DNA of 28,665 nucleotides from a virus (taxonomy: Duplodnaviria; Heunggongvirae; Uroviricota; Caudoviricetes), in IMG/VR virus record IMGVR_UViG_2740892282_000008; one strand, given 5' to 3'. Within the stretch, counting starts at the first letter, position 1; each line of letters opens with the position of its first letter. This document shows positions 3,045-22,052 of the stretch, in pieces. A program made the translations under genes and the position numbers. Below the pieces are notes generated by a model that had not been told where the DNA came from, ran no database searches, and saw nothing but the letters and a program-made list of their open reading frames with translations.

Positions 3045-3933
3045 TTGTCACCCCCATTGATATGCAGGGTGTCTTCTTCCTGTATTTTTCGTGAAGGATT
3101 TTTACTGCAGCGTTGTTCCAGGTGACCTGATGGTGAATGCGTTTATGGCTGGCACCCATCAGTGAGATTTTTACGCACGACGGCGCATACATGACGGAGT
3201 AAAAACTTTTAACGTAGGTTCCGGAATCCAGATACAGCTCGGTCATTCCGCCGCTGTTTTTCTGCGTCTGTTTCTGCCCTAACTGGACAGCACCGATCGT
3301 CATAAACAATTCACCACAGCGACCGAGATTCGTGTACGTATTCACATCCTCGTTAATGCGCCCCATGAATGAGAACGGTCGATCAACCGAACAGATAAAG
3401 CTGTTCATTGCCTTGCGTTTCACCCACGAAGCATGGCCGCCATTGTCACCAAGAAAATCCCCGCCCTGCGACATAGCGATGGAAAGAGCAGGTATTGATT
3501 CGTAGTACGCCAGCATTTCAGAAAGGATCGCATCCAGTTTCCTTATCGGAAAATAGGCCTGGTCATAGTTGCGATCCACCCGAAACTGGAACTCGTGATA
3601 ATCATCATCGAGCTGAATGAAGTATTTACACCCGACCAGTTTTGCCAGGTCGAAACAGGCATTACGGGCGTAAAAAATTGAGCGGCGGTCACAGAAATTA
3701 TCGGCTTCGTCAAAACGACTGGCGATATCGGCTTTGGAAAACACCAGCACCTGTTCACCAAATTCAGCCATGTACTGATTCCGTGTCTTATCTTCATCAT
3801 CAACAACGATAAAAATTTTCCCGGTATAGCCAGCACGACGCAACGTCCGGTAAGTCAGAACTTTGTCCGGTCGCCCGTGAGTCAGAATAAAGGCGCAAAA
3901 ATCATCACGCATATTCCTCCTCCTCACCACCAT
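2980..3933 (-). CDS. Uncharacterised protein, partner of the ParB-like gene (310-317 aa)
   Basis: Long ORF translationally coupled to the upstream ParB-like gene. The likely true start is the ATG at 3912, preceded by AGGAGGAGG. Contains a possible PD...(D/E)xK-like motif (GRPD ... IFIVVDDEDK); no methyltransferase DPPY/NPPY motif and no PP-loop. Confidence 0.7.
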   Translation of the reverse strand: MVVRRRNMRDDFCAFILTHGRPDKVLTYRTLRRAGYTGKIFIVVDDEDKTRNQYMAEFGEQVLVFSKADIASRFDEADNFCDRRSIFYARNACFDLAKLVGCKYFIQLDDDYHEFQFRVDRNYDQAYFPIRKLDAILSEMLAYYESIPALSIAMSQGGDFLGDNGGHASWVKRKAMNSFICSVDRPFSFMGRINEDVNTYTNLGRCGELFMTIGAVQLGQKQTQKNSGGMTELYLDSGTYVKSFYSVMYAPSCVKISLMGASHKRIHHQVTWNNAAVKILHEKYRKKTPCISMGVTNDSVFESRVSGSVPDDCTTNR

Positions 3934-12645: not shown

Positions 12646-13845
12646 ATGCCATTTGTTATTTATGTGTTTACTATCAGTGCCTTTGCGCTCGGACTCGCGG
12701 AATTTGTCCCCATTGGGCTGACAGACGTTATGGCTCAGGGGTTGTGTGTGGGTGTGGAGCAGACCGGGGCAGCGGTTACAACCTATGCACTGGGGGCAAC
12801 GTTCGCGGCACCCGTACTGTCTGCGCTGACAGCAAGCTGGAGCCGGAAAAATGTAATGCTTACAACTGCCGTTGTGTTTACTGCCGGTAGTCTGGCGGCC
12901 GCGTTTGCAGCCACATTACCTCAGCTCCTGTTAGCGCGGTTCATTGCTGGTCTGGGACACGGCCTGTTTCTGGCTGCGGCATCCAGTACCGCAGCTCGTC
13001 TTGCTGGACCGGGTAAAGCAGGCAGAGCGGTGGCTGTGGTATTTGGTGGCTTTACTCTGGCGATGGCAATCGGCGTACCGCTGAGTACATGGTTGGGGGG
13101 GGGGGTCTCATGGCGTCCAGTTCTCGGCGCTATTGCCGCTTTTGGCGCGTTCGGATTCCTTGGACTGTTGTTCGGTATGAAAGATCCCGTACGCAGCGTG
13201 CCCGGTGAACATAGTGACTCAGCAATGCAGAATATCGGCATGCTGTTTAACCGTAAGTTGCTGGCCGGCGCGCTGGTTACGGTGCTGGCGTATGCAGGCT
13301 CGTTTACGGATTACACCTTTATCGCACCTATTCTGACGCAGGTGACAGGGGTTACCGGAGCAACGGTGAGTCTGTTTATGCTGGTTTACGGTATTACAGC
13401 TGCGGTAGGTAATATTCTTGGTGGGAAACTTACCGACAGCATGGGGGTTAATCGTGCCAATATACTCATCATTAGCGGCATTGTTGTTGTCGTGCTTGGT
13501 ATGTGGCTGCTGTCATCCTCACCGGTGAGCATGGGCATTCTGGTTGCGCTGCTGGGTATGGTGACATTTGCCGCAGTGCCGGCACTGCAGGCCCGTCTGA
13601 TTGGTGTCGCTGAGCAACATGCTCCTCATGCGCATGGTGTTGCTGCCGGCCTGAATATTGCGGGCTTCAACTCAGGTATAGCGCTGGGATCAGTACTGGG
13701 CAGCATTACTATAAGCCACGCCGGTATCGTGTATACCGGTATCAGCGGTGCGATTGTTTCTCTGCTCGGCCTGCTGTTGCTGCTTGCACAAATCCGTCGC
13801 AGCCACAGTCGTAAATTTCAACAGGTTAAAATCGTAGGCCAGTAA
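12646..13845 (+). CDS. MFS transporter (399 aa)
   Basis: About 12 predicted transmembrane helices, Gly/Ala-rich major-facilitator-like sequence; AGGAG RBS; GC-rich relative to phage DNA; contains an 11-G tract. Confidence 0.85.
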   Translation: MPFVIYVFTISAFALGLAEFVPIGLTDVMAQGLCVGVEQTGAAVTTYALGATFAAPVLSALTASWSRKNVMLTTAVVFTAGSLAAAFAATLPQLLLARFIAGLGHGLFLAAASSTAARLAGPGKAGRAVAVVFGGFTLAMAIGVPLSTWLGGGVSWRPVLGAIAAFGAFGFLGLLFGMKDPVRSVPGEHSDSAMQNIGMLFNRKLLAGALVTVLAYAGSFTDYTFIAPILTQVTGVTGATVSLFMLVYGITAAVGNILGGKLTDSMGVNRANILIISGIVVVVLGMWLLSSSPVSMGILVALLGMVTFAAVPALQARLIGVAEQHAPHAHGVAAGLNIAGFNSGIALGSVLGSITISHAGIVYTGISGAIVSLLGLLLLLAQIRRSHSRKFQQVKIVGQ

Positions 13846-13856
13846 AGGGAGGTTAT

Positions 13857-14549
13857 ATGCTTACCCGTGAAAATATGCTTAATGGCACATTTGTCAGGGT
13901 GCATGAAGCGCTGCTCCCGGCGAATATGCTCTGGGACGCTGAAAAAATACGCGCATCAATGAACTCTACTCTGGAGGAGCGCCCGACGGGTGCTCCTGTC
14001 TGGATATTTGCCTACGGGTCATTGATGTGGAATCCCGTGCTGGCGATTGAAGAAATGCAACGGGCCCGTCTGAAAGGATGGCAGCGCAGTTTCTGCATTC
14101 GTTTGATATCCGGACGAGCGACTCCTGATGTCCCCGGCAGGATGTTATCGCTCGACGAAGGTGGAATTACCGAAGGTATTGCGTTCAGACTGCCGGAATC
14201 GACTCTTATTAATGAGCTGGAAATTGTCTGGACGCGCGAGATGATAACCGGTCTTTACCGTCCGGTCTGGGCAGACGTTTCGCTAGGAAACGGTGAGGAA
14301 ATTCAGGCGCTGGCTTTCGTATCAGACAGACTGCATCCGCATTATGAACAGGACAATCTTACAGCGACCGTAGCGTTGAGCATCGCATCTGCCCGTGGAG
14401 ACATTGGCACGAATGCAGATTATGTATGGAAACTGCAGGCCACTCTGGGTGCGTTGGGAATACGGGATGATTACGTGAGTGAACTGGCCCTTGCTCTGCA
14501 TGAGGCTCCCTGTAACGATAAACTTCATCAGCGAGGCGCTTCACTATGA
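13857..14549 (+). CDS. ChaC-family gamma-glutamylcyclotransferase-like protein (230 aa)
   Basis: VWIFAYGSLMWNP and GRMLSLDEGG motifs resemble E. coli ChaC; GGGAGG RBS. Confidence 0.75.
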   Translation: MLTRENMLNGTFVRVHEALLPANMLWDAEKIRASMNSTLEERPTGAPVWIFAYGSLMWNPVLAIEEMQRARLKGWQRSFCIRLISGRATPDVPGRMLSLDEGGITEGIAFRLPESTLINELEIVWTREMITGLYRPVWADVSLGNGEEIQALAFVSDRLHPHYEQDNLTATVALSIASARGDIGTNADYVWKLQATLGALGIRDDYVSELALALHEAPCNDKLHQRGASL

Positions 14550-15427
14550 GCCATCTGAGCCATCTGCGAACGTTTCTTGAGGCCTATCGCTCTGGCTCCT
14601 TTTCAAAGGCGGCAGAACTACTGGGCATCACTCAGCCCGCGGCGTCACAGCATATCCAGTCTCTTGAGACTCTGGTTGGTAAGCGTCTGTTTATCAGGCA
14701 GGCCAGAGGCGTGACGGCAACCGAAGCTGCGGATGAGCTTGCCCGCTCAGTTTCACCCTTCATTGATGGTCTGGAAGAAAAGCTGTCCTCTTTCCGGTCA
14801 GGCTCTGTACGCGGGGGAACAATTAATCTGGCAGGACCGCCAGATTTTATTCATTCCCGGCTTGGGACAGTAATGGCTCCACTAATGAAGGAGGGGTATC
14901 GCCTACGCTTTCATACCGGCAATAAGCAACGTATTTATTCCCTTTTGCATGACGGGAGCGCCGATCTCGCTGTTACCGCATCTATGCCTGATGACCGTCT
15001 GTACGGCTATGCACATCTACTGACTGAACGCATGCTCCTTGTTCATGCTCCCGCCATGTCAGAGATCATCGGATCAGAACCTGGTGCTGAAACGCTTGCC
15101 TCATTACCGCTGATTGCTTATGACGAAGAGTTGCCACTGATTAGAGCGCTCTGGGCCTCCATGTTTCAGAGAGCCCCTGAGATGCAGGCTACATTCACCA
15201 TTCCGGATTTACGTATTATCCGCGACTTGGTCTGTGACGGCCACGGGTGGACAGTGCTGCCGGATTATCACTGTGACAATGACCTGAAAAGTGGTCGCCT
15301 GATTTCAGTGACACCTGCAGACCTCGCTCCGACTAATCATCTTTATCTGGTCTGGAACAAAAGGACGGCTAATAACAGCCGAACCGCCTATGTTCGGGAT
15401 TACATTCTTAAAACGTTTCCGCGTTGA
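14546..15427 (+). CDS. LysR-type transcriptional regulator (293 aa)
   Basis: N-terminal LysR HTH (LRTFLEAYRSGSFSKAAELLGITQPAASQHIQSLE) and C-terminal substrate-binding-like domain; ATGA overlap with the ChaC-like gene. Confidence 0.85.
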   Translation: MSHLSHLRTFLEAYRSGSFSKAAELLGITQPAASQHIQSLETLVGKRLFIRQARGVTATEAADELARSVSPFIDGLEEKLSSFRSGSVRGGTINLAGPPDFIHSRLGTVMAPLMKEGYRLRFHTGNKQRIYSLLHDGSADLAVTASMPDDRLYGYAHLLTERMLLVHAPAMSEIIGSEPGAETLASLPLIAYDEELPLIRALWASMFQRAPEMQATFTIPDLRIIRDLVCDGHGWTVLPDYHCDNDLKSGRLISVTPADLAPTNHLYLVWNKRTANNSRTAYVRDYILKTFPR

Positions 15428-15471
15428 TGTTTGAAACGGATGATTGGCGATGCGTATCATAAGTTACGTAT

Positions 15472-15495
15472 GTCCGCTTCTGGCACAAAGCAGAC
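15472..15495. repeat. Dyad element copy A: GTCCGCT-tctggcacaa-AGCAGAC
   Basis: 7-bp arms (one mismatch) with 10-bp spacer, between convergent LysR and membrane-protein genes; 20 of 24 positions identical to copy B. Confidence 0.6.
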
Positions 15496-15557
15496 GCCCA
15501 CTCTCACGCGAATGCTTTGCCCTTGACTTGCCAACAACCGTATCGCTTGCTCCGCAA

Positions 15558-16835
15558 CTATGGTTTTTTATTAGAATCTTCGCCACTAAATAAATTATAA
15601 TAAATTGATTTTATTAGATATCTGTCAGAATCTATATGGTCAGCACGAGTAGCATGCTCTAATGTTTCAAATGCTAGGGTTTGTGCGGCTTCAGCAAAAA
15701 TTCCAGGCCAACCCTTACTCAGCATCGACAGTCCTTTAAGTACCCTTATCTGAATTTCCCTCATACTGGCACCATCGCGCGCAACAGGTGAGAAAAAGTC
15801 TTCAAGTAGATCGTTATTCTGAAGTGGTGCAACATGTACAGAAGGATATTTCACTTCTATTTCATCAGATTTATTCTGCGCGTAAGCGGAAAGTATACGT
15901 ACACCTCTGCCAATGACATCAATGGCGGTTCCAGGATCGTTCACTGCGGGGGAAAGGGCTCGGCAGGCTATTTCGGCCATGACGCTAAGACAAAATCGGG
16001 GGTCCTGAGCAAATGAACGTACATCCGAGACAATAATCGTCTCAAGTAAATCGGTGCTGATTGATGACTCCTGGCCCTGACTCAGGTACAAAACTGGCGT
16101 GGACGGATGTATGAAACTGCCCGGCTGCGCCACGAGGTATACATGACGGGGATCATTGGTCAGCAGCTTGCTGAGTTTCACCATATCAACATATTCAACA
16201 TAGCCAATCTTTTTCGGATAAACTGCAACCGTTCCTTTCGGCTGTTCATTGTTCTCAAGCCATGGATATCCGCCGAGACAGGGATTTCTTGCTCTCGCAA
16301 TAAATGTTTCGATGGCCGCCTGTTCTACTTTTGCCGTTGTCTCACCAACCCTCCCCAGAGAGGTCAAATGCTGTATCCAGCGAAGCAATGTGATGAGGAT
16401 TAAGGCAATGACAACCAGTGTTACAATGAATAAAATGACTCTCCCCCTTTCTCCATAAGCTCCCATATTGAGGGCAATAATCCCTACCAGACTGAAGAGA
16501 AAAGAACCGATGAAGGTGGCCAGTACATTTTGTGTGGTGACGTCTTCAACAACTAAACGAGTAGCTCTGGGAGTCACATTAGTAGTGGCTGAACCGTAGG
16601 CTGTGACCATGATGCTCAGCGAAAATGTGGTCACTGCCAGCATACTCGATGCCAGTATGTTCAGAATGTTATCGACTGCTTCCGCACCAACCTTCACGGA
16701 AACCGACTCAGGTATCATTGATTTAAAAAGAATTGATAAAAGGGCCGTTATTATTGCGACAATTGCGAATAACGTTGCCCTGAACCATAGTTTTTTAAAT
16801 GTCTGCTTCAGCATCCATTTCCAGCGTGAAATCAT
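15558..16835 (-). CDS. Membrane protein of unknown function (about 425 aa; resembles DUF2254-type predicted membrane proteins)
   Basis: Several N-terminal transmembrane helices and a large soluble C-terminal domain; start chosen at the second ATG (16835), which has a GAGGGA RBS; the maximal ORF extends to 16850. Family assignment is from memory and tentative. Confidence 0.55.
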   Translation of the reverse strand: MISRWKWMLKQTFKKLWFRATLFAIVAIITALLSILFKSMIPESVSVKVGAEAVDNILNILASSMLAVTTFSLSIMVTAYGSATTNVTPRATRLVVEDVTTQNVLATFIGSFLFSLVGIIALNMGAYGERGRVILFIVTLVVIALILITLLRWIQHLTSLGRVGETTAKVEQAAIETFIARARNPCLGGYPWLENNEQPKGTVAVYPKKIGYVEYVDMVKLSKLLTNDPRHVYLVAQPGSFIHPSTPVLYLSQGQESSISTDLLETIIVSDVRSFAQDPRFCLSVMAEIACRALSPAVNDPGTAIDVIGRGVRILSAYAQNKSDEIEVKYPSVHVAPLQNNDLLEDFFSPVARDGASMREIQIRVLKGLSMLSKGWPGIFAEAAQTLAFETLEHATRADHIDSDRYLIKSIYYNLFSGEDSNKKP

Positions 16836-16870
16836 TCTGCATTCCCTCATATTGCAGCCGGGATAAATAA

Positions 16871-16891
16871 ATGCCGCCTCTGTGGCGGCAT
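16871..16891 (-). terminator. Hairpin between the BCCT transporter and the membrane-protein gene; possible intrinsic terminator or attenuator
   Basis: 8-bp stem atgccgcc/ggcggcat with loop tctgt; on the minus strand it is followed by ttatttatcc. Confidence 0.4.
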
Positions 16892-16898
16892 GTTGCTG

Positions 16899-18902
16899 TT
16901 AACGAACCAGATGCAGGAAGTGCAGGTGTTTTTCGTACTGGTCCAGTATGTCATTAATCAGCTGTTCCTGATTCCAGCCCATTACATCATAATTTTGGCC
17001 GCCCTCTTTGAGATAGACTTCAGCGCGATAATATCGATGTTGTTCACTCTGCTGCTCATCATTATCCAGCGCAGCGAGCGCGAAGGTCGGTGAGTTATAC
17101 CCGCGAAGCCTCACTTCATATATATAATTCAGCTCGTTGCCCAAATCGACTTCAAGGCGAATACGATCCTCGGCGGCGTCACTGATGTGGCTTATCGTTC
17201 CCTGCTTGTTAAGTTCCTCCTGAACCAGCGTCATGGCGGGTTGGATAATGTCGTCCATAAAACGTTTCACAAGAGAGCGCTTCGGCAAATACGCGATATT
17301 GCGTAACCTTCTCTGCCAGGGAATTGGGTTACGTGCAGCCGTAGGAGCAATAGTCGCCATGCTAAGGCTTTCACGCTTGGTCAAATCCCGACGCAGGGCT
17401 TTTAACAGTCCGTATATGGATATTAATAAGATAACTGAGAAGGGCAATGCACTCGCTATCGTTACGGTTTGCAACGCACTCAGCCCCCCTGCGATCAGCA
17501 GGGCAATAGCAACAACGCCCATGAGCGATGCCCAGAAAATTCGCTGCCAGACGGGCGTGTTTGCCACCCCACCTGATGCCAGAGTATCCACAACCATTGC
17601 CCCCGAATCAGCAGACGTTACAAAGAAGACGATGACCATCGCCATTGCAATGAATGACAGCACGGAAGAGAACGGGAAATGCTCCAGGAAATTAAACAGG
17701 GCAAGCGCAACATCCTGCTGAACGGTATTGGCGAGGTCAGTGGCGCCCTGGTTCATGATGAGATAGATGGCGCTGTTTCCAAACACCGTCATCCACATGA
17801 GCGTAAAGCCGGCGGGAACAAACAACACGCCAGTCACGAACTCACGAATTGTCCTGCCGCGGGAAACGCGTGCAATGAACATACCTACAAACGGCGACCA
17901 TGAAAGCCACCATCCCCAGTATAATAATGTCCAGCCCCCCAGCCAGTTGCTCGACTTGGGTTCATACGCGTAAAGGTTGAACGTTTTACTCACCAGTTCC
18001 GACAGATAACCACCCGTATTTTCCACAAATGACTTCAGCAGAAGCACAGTGGGACCCAGGCACAAGACCAGCGCCAGGAGCAACACCGCCAGGCCCAGAT
18101 TAAGCTCAGACAGGATGCGTATTCCCTTGTCCAGGCCGGACACCACCGAAATCGTCGCTAACCCCGTGATGACCACGATCAAAATGACCTGTACCGTTTC
18201 ATTGATGGGCACGCCGAAAAGATGGTTCAAACCGGCATTCACCTGCAATACACCGTAACCCAGCGATGTTGCAACGCCAAAGACAGTGCCTATCACGGCG
18301 AAGATATCAACCGCGTGGCCTATAGGCCCGTAAATGCGATCGCCGATAATGGGATAGAGCGCAGAACGCAGCGTTAAAGGCAGACCGTGACGGTAACTGA
18401 AAAAGGCCAGAATCAGCGCCACGATGGCATAAATTGCCCATGCGTGCAGACCCCAGTGGAAGAACGTCAGGCGCATGGCTTCCTTCGCTGCCGCAACGGT
18501 CTCTGGAGTGCCGACAGGTGGCGAAAGATAATGCATCACAGGTTCGGCAACGCCAAAGAACATCAGGCCGATCCCCATCCCTGCCGAAAAAAGCATCGCG
18601 AACCAGGAGTGGTAGCTGAAATCAGGCTGCGCATGGTCTGGGCCCAGCTTTATATCACCGTAACGTGAGAGTCCAAGGAACGTGACGCTCAGTAAAATCA
18701 GGGCCACAGCAAGTATGTAGAACCAGCTGGCATTCGTGAAGATTTGTTGCTGAAGTAGTTTAAAATTTTTGTCGGCGACATCCGGGAATACGGCGGCAAA
18801 GGCGACAAGAAGGAAAATTAGCAAAGCAGATGTAAAGAATACCGCTTTGTTAATCTGGCTTGTAGACTTCTTTGGGGTTGTATCATTTTCACTCATAATC
18901 AT
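16899..18902 (-). CDS. BCCT-family transporter, BetT-like (667 aa)
   Basis: Collinear similarity to my recollection of E. coli BetT, including LSELN, WTLLYWGWWLSWSPFVGMFIARVSRGRTIREF and the cytoplasmic C-terminal extension ending DILDQYEKHLHFLHL. Confidence 0.9.
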   Translation of the reverse strand: MIMSENDTTPKKSTSQINKAVFFTSALLIFLLVAFAAVFPDVADKNFKLLQQQIFTNASWFYILAVALILLSVTFLGLSRYGDIKLGPDHAQPDFSYHSWFAMLFSAGMGIGLMFFGVAEPVMHYLSPPVGTPETVAAAKEAMRLTFFHWGLHAWAIYAIVALILAFFSYRHGLPLTLRSALYPIIGDRIYGPIGHAVDIFAVIGTVFGVATSLGYGVLQVNAGLNHLFGVPINETVQVILIVVITGLATISVVSGLDKGIRILSELNLGLAVLLLALVLCLGPTVLLLKSFVENTGGYLSELVSKTFNLYAYEPKSSNWLGGWTLLYWGWWLSWSPFVGMFIARVSRGRTIREFVTGVLFVPAGFTLMWMTVFGNSAIYLIMNQGATDLANTVQQDVALALFNFLEHFPFSSVLSFIAMAMVIVFFVTSADSGAMVVDTLASGGVANTPVWQRIFWASLMGVVAIALLIAGGLSALQTVTIASALPFSVILLISIYGLLKALRRDLTKRESLSMATIAPTAARNPIPWQRRLRNIAYLPKRSLVKRFMDDIIQPAMTLVQEELNKQGTISHISDAAEDRIRLEVDLGNELNYIYEVRLRGYNSPTFALAALDNDEQQSEQHRYYRAEVYLKEGGQNYDVMGWNQEQLINDILDQYEKHLHFLHLVR

Positions 18903-19236: not shown

Positions 19237-19659
19237 TCACTTCAATAAATACCGAACATCCCCCTGATAAAACGACAATATGCGCTGCATAACTTCGCTC
19301 TTCCGGCACTCGCGACAGATTATGTTTAGGCGACTGTCGTAGCGACGTATTTCTCCGTCAGGTAATGACCAGATAAGGTCCGGATCAACCACAACCGGTT
19401 TCTTCAGCTTTGCCCTCGATAATTTTTTGCGGGCATTTTGCCAGTCTTTACGAGCCTGTTCAGACGGGAATAACCCGTAGCCAGAATTGTATACATCGCC
19501 ACTGGCAACCAGCTCTCTGGCCAGAACGCTCATCAGATATCTTGTTGCCCCAGTTTTAGCTTCCAGTTGTCGTAACGTCTCGCGCCCACTCTGGCGTACG
19601 AGTTCAAGAACCTGCCCTTTAATTTTTTCCCGCTCTTCTTGTGTAAAAACTTTTGCCAC
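19237..19659 (-). CDS. Hypothetical phage early protein (140 aa)
   Basis: GTG start with AGGAGGG RBS; last gene of the early-right block before the cargo; no Walker A motif, so not a DnaC-type loader. Confidence 0.6.
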   Translation of the reverse strand: MAKVFTQEEREKIKGQVLELVRQSGRETLRQLEAKTGATRYLMSVLARELVASGDVYNSGYGLFPSEQARKDWQNARKKLSRAKLKKPVVVDPDLIWSLPDGEIRRYDSRLNIICRECRKSEVMQRILSFYQGDVRYLLK

Positions 19660-19699: not shown

Positions 19700-20776
19700 T
19701 TACCCCCTGAAGCCCGGCGGAATTTCGTTATCCGGTTCAGAAATATGATTCACACAACGCTGGTTGTTCGTGCCGCTTACCGGGAGCAACCAGGGGTTCT
19801 CAAAATTCCGGTCCGGTCCAAAAAACGTCGTCGCTCGCTGAACAAATTCCGTTCCCGTTTTCCCGGTAGCCGCCAAGTATCTTGCGTAACGCCTCACGCC
19901 ATCCAGCATGGCCTCTGGTGGCACCCCCTCGCGTAATCTGGCCTTCCAGGCACTGAAAGCGGATTTCTTCGGGTTTGCCCCAGCACGCAACGGGTACTCC
20001 CGCCAGACCTGTTCGAACACATCCGGATAATCCACTCGTCCCACAGACTGCCCGGTGTTTTCCGGGACTACCCGATCGGCTTCCCGCTGAATGGCGGAAT
20101 CGGCTTCAGGCTGCTGCAGTTGGTGTGATTGCTCCGCCCTTGCGGTCATCACCTGCTGCACAGCGCCCGAATCGGCTTTCAGCGCATACGCTGAATCGGC
20201 TTCCGGTGTCGTGCCTGCTGGCTGACCAAGATTGACGGTCTGAACATCCCCTGCCTGGTTCGTGGCGTTTTTTACGCCATGGACCATAGTGTTTTGATCT
20301 TCTTGATCTGTATCTTTATCTGTATCTTTATCTGTCGTGACTCGTCGTGACATGTGCGTGACATTTCGTGACGCGCCGTGACAATCGCCATTTTGTTCCC
20401 GCTTTCTTTCCCTCTCTCGCTGCGCCCTCTTGCGCTCTGCAGGAGATTTTGCGGTTTGCGAAATATTGCCGTTGTCCTCTTTAAGCACCTGGCGTTTTTC
20501 CCATCCAGTGATTAAATCACCATCAAGTACCCGCCCCTGCATCGTCTGCAAAATTGAATCAATTACCTCTTCTGTCACGTCGAGCGCACTTGCCAAATCT
20601 TCTGTCGTGACATCAATGTGACCTCGCGTGACATTTCGTGACGCGCTCACCAGGAGGTGGATATACACTGCCATCACTGTTGCAATTGGCTGTCCTGACA
20701 CCCTGGCAATTGTTCGCCACTTAGGGTCATTTGGCATGTCATGCCATAATCTGAGCCAGGCGTTAGCCATACTCAC
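19700..20776 (-). CDS. Putative replication initiation protein (YdaU/DUF1376-like C-terminal domain) with internal iteron-like repeats
   Basis: 358-aa ORF in the replication position; C-terminal domain resembles YdaU-family proteins from memory; central low-complexity segment (DKDTDKDTD) and a duplicated ASRNVT motif coincide with the DNA repeats. Confidence 0.6.
   Translation of the reverse strand: MSMANAWLRLWHDMPNDPKWRTIARVSGQPIATVMAVYIHLLVSASRNVTRGHIDVTTEDLASALDVTEEVIDSILQTMQGRVLDGDLITGWEKRQVLKEDNGNISQTAKSPAERKRAQRERERKREQNGDCHGASRNVTHMSRRVTTDKDTDKDTDQEDQNTMVHGVKNATNQAGDVQTVNLGQPAGTTPEADSAYALKADSGAVQQVMTARAEQSHQLQQPEADSAIQREADRVVPENTGQSVGRVDYPDVFEQVWREYPLRAGANPKKSAFSAWKARLREGVPPEAMLDGVRRYARYLAATGKTGTEFVQRATTFFGPDRNFENPWLLPVSGTNNQRCVNHISEPDNEIPPGFRG
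20306..20382. repeat. Iteron-like array 1: two tandem 12-mers (atctgtatcttt) followed by five CGTGAC hexamers phased at 10-11 bp
   Basis: CGTGAC at 20336, 20346, 20357, 20367 and 20377. Confidence 0.7.
20574..20642. repeat. Iteron-like array 2: one inverted GTCACG plus four (C/T)GTGAC hexamers phased at 10-11 bp
   Basis: GTCACG at 20574; CGTGAC at 20606, 20627 and 20637; TGTGAC at 20617; a 21-bp exact repeat gcgtgacatttcgtgacgcgc is shared with array 1 (20356-20376 and 20626-20646). Confidence 0.7.
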
Positions 20777-20841: not shown

Positions 20842-21267
20842 TCAATGCACAGCCACAATATTTCCTGCAGGGCCACCACGATTCATCTGGTTGAAACCAG
20901 CGATCGCCACTGCGACAAAATCATCAGCGTCTCTCACCAGTCGTTCCCGCGTCTCCACTAGTTCCCGAAAATAGGCTGAGCTATGGCTGCGCATTCGGGC
21001 CACCAGCAGAGGTGGCATTGCTTTTTCGATAGCTGGTAACAACGCCTGAATTTTTTCAACTGCATCAGGGGTGTCTTTCTCTACCCAGCGGAAAATTTTC
21101 TGGGTATTGCGAGCCAGGGCTTCCGGATGGCTGTCGTCATACAGTTCTGGGAACGTCATACCCAGTTCAAAATAAGCCCTGGTTATTTCAGCTGCCGGAA
21201 CTTTTTCACCGTCCGGATGCGCCCAGGCATTCATCGCCATGCGGATGTGTTCATGCTTGATTTTCAT
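20842..21267 (-). CDS. YdaT-like early protein (141 aa)
   Basis: ATG with AGGAG RBS; follows the cro-like gene with a 17-nt overlap, as ydaS-ydaT do in Rac; name assigned by size and position. Confidence 0.55.
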   Translation of the reverse strand: MKIKHEHIRMAMNAWAHPDGEKVPAAEITRAYFELGMTFPELYDDSHPEALARNTQKIFRWVEKDTPDAVEKIQALLPAIEKAMPPLLVARMRSHSSAYFRELVETRERLVRDADDFVAVAIAGFNQMNRGGPAGNIVAVH

Positions 21268-21532
21268 GAATCAAGCTCCTAGAAAGTGGTTGTGTTAACA
21301 TTTTGGTATCTTCCAGCTCGGGCCAAATATTCATCCAATCAAAAGGCCTTAGTTGCTGACGTGTAACTTCACCATTACTGGCTCGCTCAATAAGGACACA
21401 TAACGATGCCCCTAACACTTGACCTTTACTCAATGCCTTTCTTAGATAACCGATGCTGGTACCACACTCGCATGCAAACATACGCTGTTCATCTGACGAA
21501 AGAGAATTGAGAAATATTCTTAATTCTTCCAT
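21251..21532 (-). CDS. Cro-like HTH regulator (YdaS-like, 93 aa)
   Basis: Divergent from racR across the operator region; HTH-like segment (GTSIGYLRKALSKGQ) and IERASNGEVTRQQLRPFDW motif typical of Cro/YdaS-like proteins; strong AAGGAG RBS. Confidence 0.7.
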   Translation of the reverse strand: MEELRIFLNSLSSDEQRMFACECGTSIGYLRKALSKGQVLGASLCVLIERASNGEVTRQQLRPFDWMNIWPELEDTKMLTQPLSRSLIHENQA

Positions 21533-21561: not shown

Positions 21562-21637
21562 TACCCATAGGTAAACAAAAGTCAATACCCACAGGTTGTT
21601 TACCTTGCAGTAATCGCATCTATTATTTACCTATGGA
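21562..21637. promoter_or_regulatory. Immunity operator/promoter region (OR-like) with three related dyad sites
   Basis: tacccataggta (21562-21573), tacccacaggtt (21586-21597) and tacctatgga (21628-21637, overlapping the racR ATG), in the 100-bp gap between divergent racR and cro-like genes. Confidence 0.6.
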
Positions 21638-22052
21638 CAAATATGAATTTAGACGACAGCAACTCATCAAAATTCGTGATGAGAAATGCGATGGTAAAGC
21701 GGTTAACGTGGCCAGAAAGATCGGGCGCGAGCCTTCTTATGTATCAAGAATGTTGTACCCAGAGGGGAAAAAGGGAAAAAAACGGATCGCTGATGATATG
21801 GTGGAGATTATCGAAGAGTCCTTTGGGTTACCCCGGGGATGGATGGATGGTATCGTTTCATCATCAACGAACACAGCCTCCAGTTATGAAACAAGGGTTC
21901 TAACGCCACGACAACGTATTTTTTTAGATCTCTTAGACGAACTGCCAGAAAGTGAAGCGGATAACTTATTAAAAACTCTTGAAGAGAAAAAACAGTATTA
22001 CAATATGATCTACGAAGAAATCCGTAAAAAGAAAGCACAAAACGCATCATAG
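21633..22052 (+). CDS. racR: Prophage repressor (RacR-like)
   Basis: 139-aa ORF with N-terminal HTH (NVARKIGREPSYVSRML), divergent from the cro-like gene and flanked on both sides by operator-like palindromes. The symbol is assigned by position and my recollection of Rac. Confidence 0.65.
   Translation: MDKYEFRRQQLIKIRDEKCDGKAVNVARKIGREPSYVSRMLYPEGKKGKKRIADDMVEIIEESFGLPRGWMDGIVSSSTNTASSYETRVLTPRQRIFLDLLDELPESEADNLLKTLEEKKQYYNMIYEEIRKKKAQNAS

Follow-up and report, generated by a model that had tools for sequence, protein, structure and literature searches.

The window analysed here, a 28,665-nt stretch of DNA assigned to the Caudoviricetes (IMG/VR record IMGVR_UViG_2740892282_000008), is a segment of an E. 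coli chromosome with a Rac-like prophage at the ttcA locus. The replication initiator gene of this prophage contains two arrays of the hexamer CGTGAC (GTCACG on the sense strand), one of which adjoins an AT-rich tract. Comparison with related loci leads us to propose, with a probability of roughly 0.8, that the prophage starts its vegetative replication here, at an origin carried within the coding sequence of its own initiator, in the manner of phage lambda. The original prediction, made from the letters of the window, had suggested such an arrangement, with iterons acting at the DNA level and an origin inside the initiator gene; the idea agrees with frozen synonymous sites, hexamers read in three frames, concerted switches of the repeats, AT-biased codon choice and the existence of a mosaic partner. 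The features concerned, in window coordinates, are:

19700–20770, minus strand: replication initiator gene, 356 amino acids from ATG 20770; the open reading frame (ORF) opens at GTG 20776
20606–20642, minus strand: array 2, proposed auxiliary iterons; four hexamers in the same orientation as array 1; encodes residues 45–57
20574–20579, plus strand: inverted single hexamer that reads CGTGAC in the sense strand; lies downstream of array 2, at a distance of 32 bp; encodes D66-V67-T68, the turn of the helix-turn-helix (HTH)
20336–20382, minus strand: array 1, proposed core iterons; five GTCACG on the sense strand; encodes residues 132–147, the start of a disordered linker
20287–20335, minus strand: AT-rich tract, proposed DNA unwinding element; GATAAAGATACA repeats, with a purine-rich sense strand; follows array 1 directly in the gene direction
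20356–20376: copy 1 of the 21-bp exact repeat GCGTGACATTTCGTGACGCGC, two iterons plus spacer
20626–20646: copy 2 of GCGTGACATTTCGTGACGCGC, 270 bp from copy 1

Array 1 consists of exact CGTGAC copies starting at 20336, 20346, 20357, 20367 and 20377, with a spacing of 10/11/10/10 bp. In array 2, exact copies start at 20606, 20627 and 20637, and the one-mismatch TGTGAC at 20616 completes a 10/11/10 series. The original prediction of two clusters of four to five CGTGAC hexamers, 10–11 bp apart, is accurate for array 1 and too generous for array 2, which has three exact copies, one degenerate copy and one inverted copy. The 21-bp repeat had been correctly described as exact and common to both arrays, about 270 bp apart; its identity suggests that gene conversion or duplication has recently occurred between the arrays. 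The tandem 12-mers said to flank array 1 are also present, and are scored by Tandem Repeats Finder as 2.9 copies of TCTTTATCTGTA at 20301–20335.

The clustering of these hexamers is far from random. Nine of the 19 CGTGAC copies in the 28.7-kb window fall inside 310 bp (Poisson probability of at least nine copies, ~1e-13), and no dinucleotide-shuffled version of the window contained as many as 19. In an unbiased scan for chains of hexamers 9–12 bp apart, the window had them at the initiator arrays only. The same scan was applied to the complete 46-kb genome of Tritos, one of the isolated phages (with Evi and several vB_Eco phages) whose initiator gene is 98–99% identical in DNA to that of the window, and returned only the homologous initiator gene and one unrelated three-copy chain. 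The latter (L124, 23188–23213) is made of three CAATGC copies at 10-bp spacing, located between the pinR invertase gene and a regulator gene, and may be an invertase or enhancer site.

We collected relatives of the N-terminal 160 residues of the initiator, which yielded a comparison sample of 39 loci from different species. On the sense strand, GTCACG occurs at fixed offsets of 116, 126, 136 and 147 nt from the Trp7 codon in ~27 species, despite a range of 34–69% in the G+C content (GC) of the loci. About one relative in two has the inverted hexamer at offset 179, as in the window; by this comparison, it is less constrained than the array 2 sites. One to five exact copies occupy the equivalent place in the linker, directly before the AT tract and ~250 bp downstream of array 2, in 23 species. 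Successive hexamers in 23 loci are spaced by 10 bp (82 times), 11 bp (23 times) or 21 bp (3 times), and the array zone holds 19.2 hexamers per kb versus 0.35 per kb elsewhere in the loci, a 55-fold difference; no hexamer clusters were found elsewhere in the compared loci, promoters included.

Codon usage indicates that the hexamers are conserved as nucleotides. GTCACG is read in three frames, as Cys-His-(Gly/Asp/Glu), x-Ser-Arg and Val-Thr, and this is why a seemingly conserved CH.xSRNVT peptide appears in an otherwise unconserved linker. For 20 sequences with a mean nucleotide identity of 69%, from loci of 34–69% GC, the third positions of V49, T50, G52, H53, V56 and T57, all inside hexamers, are 100% invariant. 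Six of nine synonymous third positions are invariant inside hexamers, compared with none of 25 outside (Fisher p = 6e-5), the outside class being the 25 codons of invariant residues not in hexamers. Between two hexamers lies R51, and all four bases are found at the third position of its codon. A protein motif cannot account for this contrast, and, together with the codon choice in the tract described next, the alignments show purifying selection at the DNA level on both the GTCACG hexamers and the AT tract beside them.

The AT-rich tract has a GC of 0.29 over 49 bp (20287–20335), where local GC dips to 0.37. In nearly every relative, a AGATAAAGATAAAGA tract of the form (c/a)tAGATAAAGATAAAGA... 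directly follows the last linker hexamer, with a GC of 0.23–0.38 (0.50 in L030) even in hosts of 66–69% GC. The bias lies in the choice between synonymous codons: the ratio of GAT to GAC is 72:3 in the tract versus 203:239 in the rest of the genes (p = 2e-18), and that of AAA to AAG is 64:9 versus 145:162 elsewhere (p = 8e-11). Judged by these ratios, the tract is maintained as DNA, independent of host GC, and an unwinding element is the natural reading that we propose for it. DnaA boxes (TTATNCACA) with up to one mismatch are absent between 19755 and 20797, and their window-wide count is at chance level.

The two arrays change together among the relatives. Both have switched to GTAACG in L025, L027, L035 and L037, and both to CGAACG in L032, L034 and L036; no locus has discordant arrays. 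L029 has a denser, overlapping version of the hexamer in both arrays, and L037 carries the same 11-residue insertion in both. Across the compared loci, the arrays are thus shown to evolve in concert. Iteron number changes in 21-bp steps, equal to seven codons and two iterons, which preserves both reading frame and helical phase. Specifically, array 1 of the window (20346–20366) encodes an extra NVTHMSR relative to most relatives, and the E. albertii locus (L005) has an extra TCHGVSL in array 2. Three loci (L031, L033 and L038) lack array 2 and retain one or two sites next to the tract; the linker array with its tract is therefore the universal core, and array 2 is accessory in at least some lineages. 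The two arrays are probably not equivalent. Helical phasing between the arrays was considered as evidence and set aside as not interpretable, the distance being fixed by coding length. Relatives from Serratia and Pantoea (L039 ~3300–3420, L041 ~3300–3450) keep the N-domain and have a linker with a GIY-YIG-like segment (YVYYVATTDGDVVRVGISRNPWARCKDLK), in which ACTACG/CGTAGT repeats stand in place of the iteron and AT-tract arrangement.

A mosaic partner of the initiator is found in Shigella phage 75/02 Stx, whose protein shares the C-terminal half (63% identity from residue 160) and has an unrelated N-domain. Profile alignment of the two N-domain families with hhalign gave a probability of 1%, that is, no detectable homology, so that common descent does not explain the layout that they share. 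In 75/02 Stx (L002, 3580–3910), 11-bp repeats of the GAAGGGGCTTC type occur twice in the HTH-coding part and two to three times in the linker, where they adjoin a (CAGGAA)n tract. The two-site layout, with AAGGGGCTTC-type 11-bp repeats, recurs in at least 60 distinct viral loci of the 75/02-type family (L044–L123). Their linker copies are direct in some loci (peptide EGASKGL) and inverted in others (EAPSKPL), and their tandem tracts are hexanucleotide repeats of the QEQE, GAGA or GTGT kind. The inter-array distance is 240–280 bp in most loci of both N-domain families.

Among the alternatives to a linker-centred origin, the one that fares best would make both arrays equally essential halves of a bipartite origin, in which the initiator loops or wraps the intervening ~210 bp. 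The arrays are tied to each other by concerted evolution and by the 21-bp exact repeat, and the two-array layout is present in two unrelated N-domain families, mostly at 240–280 bp. However, the constancy of this distance is uninformative, since it is set by protein domain length; the 75/02-type family contains both relative orientations of the arrays, and L031, L033 and L038 keep one or two linker sites with the tract and do without array 2. We consider strict equality of the two arrays rather unlikely.

It is more improbable still that the arrays, bound by the initiator or by some other regulator from phage or host, serve regulation only (autorepression, a transcription roadblock or copy control), with the origin elsewhere. 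Array 1 is always coupled to the DNA-selected AT tract, a hallmark of an unwinding element. The repeats change with the N-domain of the initiator, which argues against a host factor or a repressor; no hexamer clusters occur near promoters, and the complete Tritos genome contains no other phased array, its unrelated three-copy chain apart. Iteron arrays that act in control are known, for example P1 incA, and a protein bound to array 2, which is near the initiator gene's 5' end, could obstruct transcription that starts at an upstream promoter. Moreover, SPP1 gp38 has been proposed to stall forks at oriR (PMC6316719).

It is very hard to sustain that the repeats have no DNA function and reflect only an internal duplication or motif of the protein (ASRNVT...VTT). 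The peptide is indeed duplicated, with ASRNVT at residues 45–50 and 135–140, VTTED at 56–60 and VTTDK at 146–150, and S46, V49, T50, G52, H53, V56 and T57 are invariant or nearly so in protein alignments. But a period of 10–11 bp is not a multiple of three, the hexamer is translated in three different frames, the copies in the linker belong to a segment that is predicted to be disordered and is otherwise unconserved, copy number changes in 21-bp steps, and the contrast between synonymous sites frozen inside the hexamers and free outside them already contradicts this explanation. The internal duplication of the original prediction (ASRNVT...VTT[D/E]D), whose copies we locate at residues 45–60 and 135–150, had been presented there as a by-product of the repeats, in line with the three-frame reading and the frozen synonymous sites.

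A packaging or recombination site, meaning a pac-like hexamer cluster or a mosaic-generating hotspot, has next to no chance of being correct: the P1 pac site does have two hexamer clusters and the linker is a mosaic junction between N- and C-terminal modules, but the terminase genes are at the other end of the Tritos genome, far from the replication gene, the shared simple-repeat tract offers a better explanation for exchange at the junction, and co-variation with the N-domain and the adjacent AT tract fit an origin.

An AlphaFold2 model of the initiator, built from 54 sequences, places the arrays within the protein. The N-domain (residues 1–100) is predicted with confidence and consists of helices 3–16, 18–27 and 31–47, a loop (res. 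48–57), an HTH (res. 58–65 and 69–79) and a wing. It is followed by a basic helix (res. 112–132), a disordered segment (res. 134–246), a helical C-domain (res. 251–319) and a disordered tail. In this model, array 2 encodes the end of helix 31–47 and the loop that precedes the HTH, and loop insertions are found at array 2 in L025, L027, L029, L030 and L037; array 1 and the AT tract encode the start of the predicted disordered linker. According to the model, both arrays are housed in tolerant coding segments, a loop and a disordered linker, and the fold of the N-domain is a winged helix of the DnaD-like or 'replisome organizer'-like kind. In database searches, the match to PF09681 (phage replisome organizer N-terminal domain) reaches 15.9 bits, below the threshold of 23.3, the 358-residue protein has no above-threshold hit in Pfam or NCBIfam, Foldseek against the PDB gave nothing below E = 0.5, and Pfam Phage_rep_O did not match even at E <= 10. 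'DNA replication protein O', as homologues are called in some phage records, is a mere label.

The last ~24 residues of the initiator (...VNHISEPDNEIPPGFRG) match the end of E. coli DnaT, with a tail ...EIPPGFRG. Only this stretch matches, at E = 7e-4 and 19 bits against a cut-off of 201 for NF002770 and at E = 0.003 for PDB 6aep; PF17948 is found in many relatives with other C-domains. The pattern ...SEPDxxIPPGFRG (window 19700–19771, the last 24 codons) is also seen at the C-terminus of YdaU and in proteins P0039, P0044, P0045 and P0053. This DnaT-like tail, common to initiators with otherwise different C-domains, may be a docking motif for the host machinery. On single-stranded DNA, DnaT assembles into filaments, and a role in recruiting DnaB/DnaC is attributed to it (PMC13377028). 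The initiator is the sole replication gene in the complete 46-kb genome of Tritos, which encodes no helicase, loader, primase or polymerase.

For binding, unwinding, recruitment of host proteins and the part played by array 2, we infer the following scheme. The DnaD-like winged helix at the N-terminus would bind one hexamer per helical turn, with successive domains arranged head to tail along one face of the double helix. On the five sites of array 1, an oligomer akin to the lambda O-some would form and distort the DNA, and upon this oligomerisation the adjoining 29%-GC GATAAA/GATACA tract would melt. The C-terminal domain and the DnaT-like ...IPPGFRG tail would engage the single strand, the host DnaB-DnaC or primosome, or both, which would explain why the phage needs no helicase loader of its own. 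Array 2, 260–270 bp upstream in the part coding for the DNA-binding domain, would be bound by the same protein in an auxiliary role, perhaps helping to stabilise or loop the initiation complex, perhaps acting in negative feedback or as a roadblock on the initiator gene. The duplicated peptides (ASRNVT, VTT) would be a by-product of iterons placed in tolerant coding segments.

Several observations weigh against an origin of this kind or weaken the case for it. The hexamer classes share ...ACG, so that the 'specificity switch' may be smaller than it appears, and part of the concerted change could be due to gene conversion. Array 2 overlaps the conserved residues R51, G52 and H53, and protein and DNA constraints are entangled there. 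The 75/02-type tract (CAGGAA) is neither AT-rich nor strongly codon-biased; the argument from an unwinding tract is therefore not transferable to that family, and 'AT-rich unwinding element' may be an incomplete account. The role given to the DnaT-like tail derives from a match of 24 residues, and the origin call for this initiator family is a prediction from sequence comparison.

Whereas the principle of an origin inside the initiator gene is textbook knowledge, this initiator family, its 6-bp cores at helical spacing, the second array in the domain-coding region and a loader-less initiator with a DnaT-type tail appear to be undescribed in the literature searched. That search, which included papers on the Stx 'Eru' replication regions, gave no description of GTCACG/CGTGAC iterons, of replisome-organizer iterons of this kind or of this origin, and the phage records examined list no origin feature in this gene. 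The proposed origin would be the likely one for a widespread, uncharacterised family of replication modules that includes the viable phages Tritos and Evi, and it suggests how a phage could replicate with a single replication protein, via the DnaT-like tail. It would also be a case of dual coding in which the same nucleotides are putative protein-binding sites and codons in three frames, with a directly measurable constraint. For the annotation of prophage origins it offers a recipe that needs sequence alone: phased hexamers, a hexanucleotide tandem tract and frozen synonymous sites.

A broader and distinctly more speculative possibility is that many proteobacterial temperate phages share an undescribed origin of swappable parts. 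It would consist of two co-evolving arrays with one site per helical turn, one in the codons of the DNA-binding domain and one in the linker by a hexanucleotide tract, both needed for a looped or wrapped complex, plus a DnaT-mimicking tail that replaces the loader. If so, the iterons could not change in sequence without altering a loop of the very protein that recognises them, the tail would let a single phage protein take over host helicase loading with no phage loader, and the layout, present in two N-domain families and apparently also in ydaU of K-12 Rac, would count as a general module rather than a one-off.

The closest precedent is lambda, in which iterons and an AT-rich region lie in the middle of gene O and two iterons with the AT tract suffice for unwinding (PMC7466680). 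As in O of lambda and Stx phages, the proposed origin of the window is located in the linker-coding segment between a DNA-binding N-domain and a C-domain; a direct-repeat array is followed by a ~40–50-bp AT-rich tract in the gene direction, extra iterons add in-frame residues to the protein, and the module lies downstream of cro- and cII-like genes, with predicted transcription from a pR-like promoter. The differences are substantial. Lambda iterons are ~19-bp sites with dyad symmetry, whereas those of the window are non-palindromic 10–11-bp units with a 6-bp invariant core and weakly conserved flanks. The window initiator is not an O homologue, given that Phage_rep_O does not match it; its gene has a second array in the part coding for the DNA-binding domain and is not followed by a P-like or DnaC-like loader gene, and its C-terminus is a DnaT-like tail.

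In SPP1, gp38 binds direct repeats inside its own gene 38 and has a second site, oriR (PMC6316719). That second site is ~13 kb from oriL in gene 38, unlike the second array of the window, which is 260 bp away in the same gene. SPP1 also has its own loader gp39 and helicase gp40, whereas the window module has neither, and the replisome-organizer Pfam match of the window initiator is sub-threshold, as given above.

Two-cluster systems in which one cluster is possibly auxiliary or regulatory include the ori of Staphylococcus aureus pathogenicity islands (SaPI), where two sets of short iterons flank an AT-rich region, P4 ori/crr and P1 incC/incA. The clusters of these systems lie outside or flank the initiator gene, and their initiators are unrelated helicase, primase or RepA proteins; in the window, both clusters are coding sequence of the initiator itself. 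Winged-helix monomers of the OmpR/PhoB type bind direct repeats head to tail with a 10–11-bp period, and here the analogy is structural only, these being transcription factors with no link to replication.

The Rac prophage of K-12 occupies the same ttcA locus and has the same neighbours (recET, kilR, sieB and ydaS/ydaT-like genes). Its initiator is a different protein, YdaU, with a DUF1376 N-domain and a tail ...IPPGFRG, accompanied by the DnaC-like ydaV; annotated Rac origins are therefore not directly comparable, and 'Rac-like' fits the prophage of the window but not its initiator gene. The YdaU linker also has degenerate ~11-bp repeats followed by a AAAGATACAGATAAAGAT tract; the repeats are TGTTCAAAC-like, and no second array was seen in ydaU. 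Specifically, the linker of K-12 ydaU (L043, 4120–4977) contains about five such repeats of the form (A/G)TGTT(C/G/T)AA(A/G)C, after which come a AATAAAGATACAGATAAAGATCT tract and a C7...G5 palindrome, and the protein ends in ...AIPPGFRG. Judging from this arrangement, the ydaU linker is probably the site of Rac oriJ, for which the papers on oriJ examined give no coordinates.

A further element of the window lies just past the AT tract, and four genes and a promoter-like site surround the initiator gene:

20256–20286: inverted repeat with a 13-bp stem (TGGTTCGTGGCGT...ACGCCATGGACCA), just past the AT tract, where the segment in common with 75/02 Stx begins
19237–19659, minus strand: DUF977 gene, after the initiator gene in the minus-strand gene order; cargo genes then follow
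20842–21267, minus strand: cII-like (YdaT family) gene, upstream of the initiator gene
21251–21532, minus strand: cro-like (YdaS family) gene, upstream of the cII-like gene
21633–22052, divergent orientation: repressor gene
21585–21558: promoter-like site that would drive transcription through the origin, a consensus match only

It is uncertain that the inverted repeat is part of the origin. The same palindrome is found in L002 (phage 75/02 Stx) at ~3543–3571, at the mosaic junction, and recalls the palindrome beside lambda ori. A hairpin past the AT tract was considered as a general feature, by analogy with lambda ori, and rejected: in 32 loci, the best hairpin was not above chance, with the best of ~45 windows out of 400 as expectation. 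Promoter and terminator scans gave counts at the shuffle level, and a 'promoter' at 20358–20385 was dismissed as merely the iterons (GTGACA). An Rfam scan of 18.9–22.7 kb returned no RNA family and only one chance match to a long non-coding RNA.

Over its full length, the 358-codon ORF that had been placed in the replication position matches PHROG 3729 'replication initiation protein' (E = 2e-257). The ATG at 20770 is preceded by AAGAGG and agrees with all homologues (MAN.WLRLWHDMP) and with the call of the Prokaryotic Genome Annotation Pipeline (MANAWL...); it is probably the true start, giving 356 residues, rather than the GTG at 20776 from which the 358 residues had been counted. The sequence of the window is 100% identical in E. 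coli strain CP53 and many other strains, and ~300 complete E. coli genomes hold at least 80% of a 7-kb stretch around the initiator gene. More than 1,100 relatives share the N-terminal 160 residues, from Enterobacteria, Pseudomonas, Bordetella, Chromobacterium and others. In a plasmid collection, the gene was found on large plasmids or on records resembling phage genomes or chromosomes only, and was the sole replicon of no small plasmid.

Non-phage cargo genes form a block (12646–18902) that separates the DUF977 gene from the prophage's late region and encodes an MFS transporter, a gamma-glutamylcyclotransferase, a LysR regulator, a DUF2254 protein and a BCCT transporter. K-12 Rac has trkG at a comparable position. 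Beyond the cargo block, copies of IS3 and IS5 break up the late region of the prophage.

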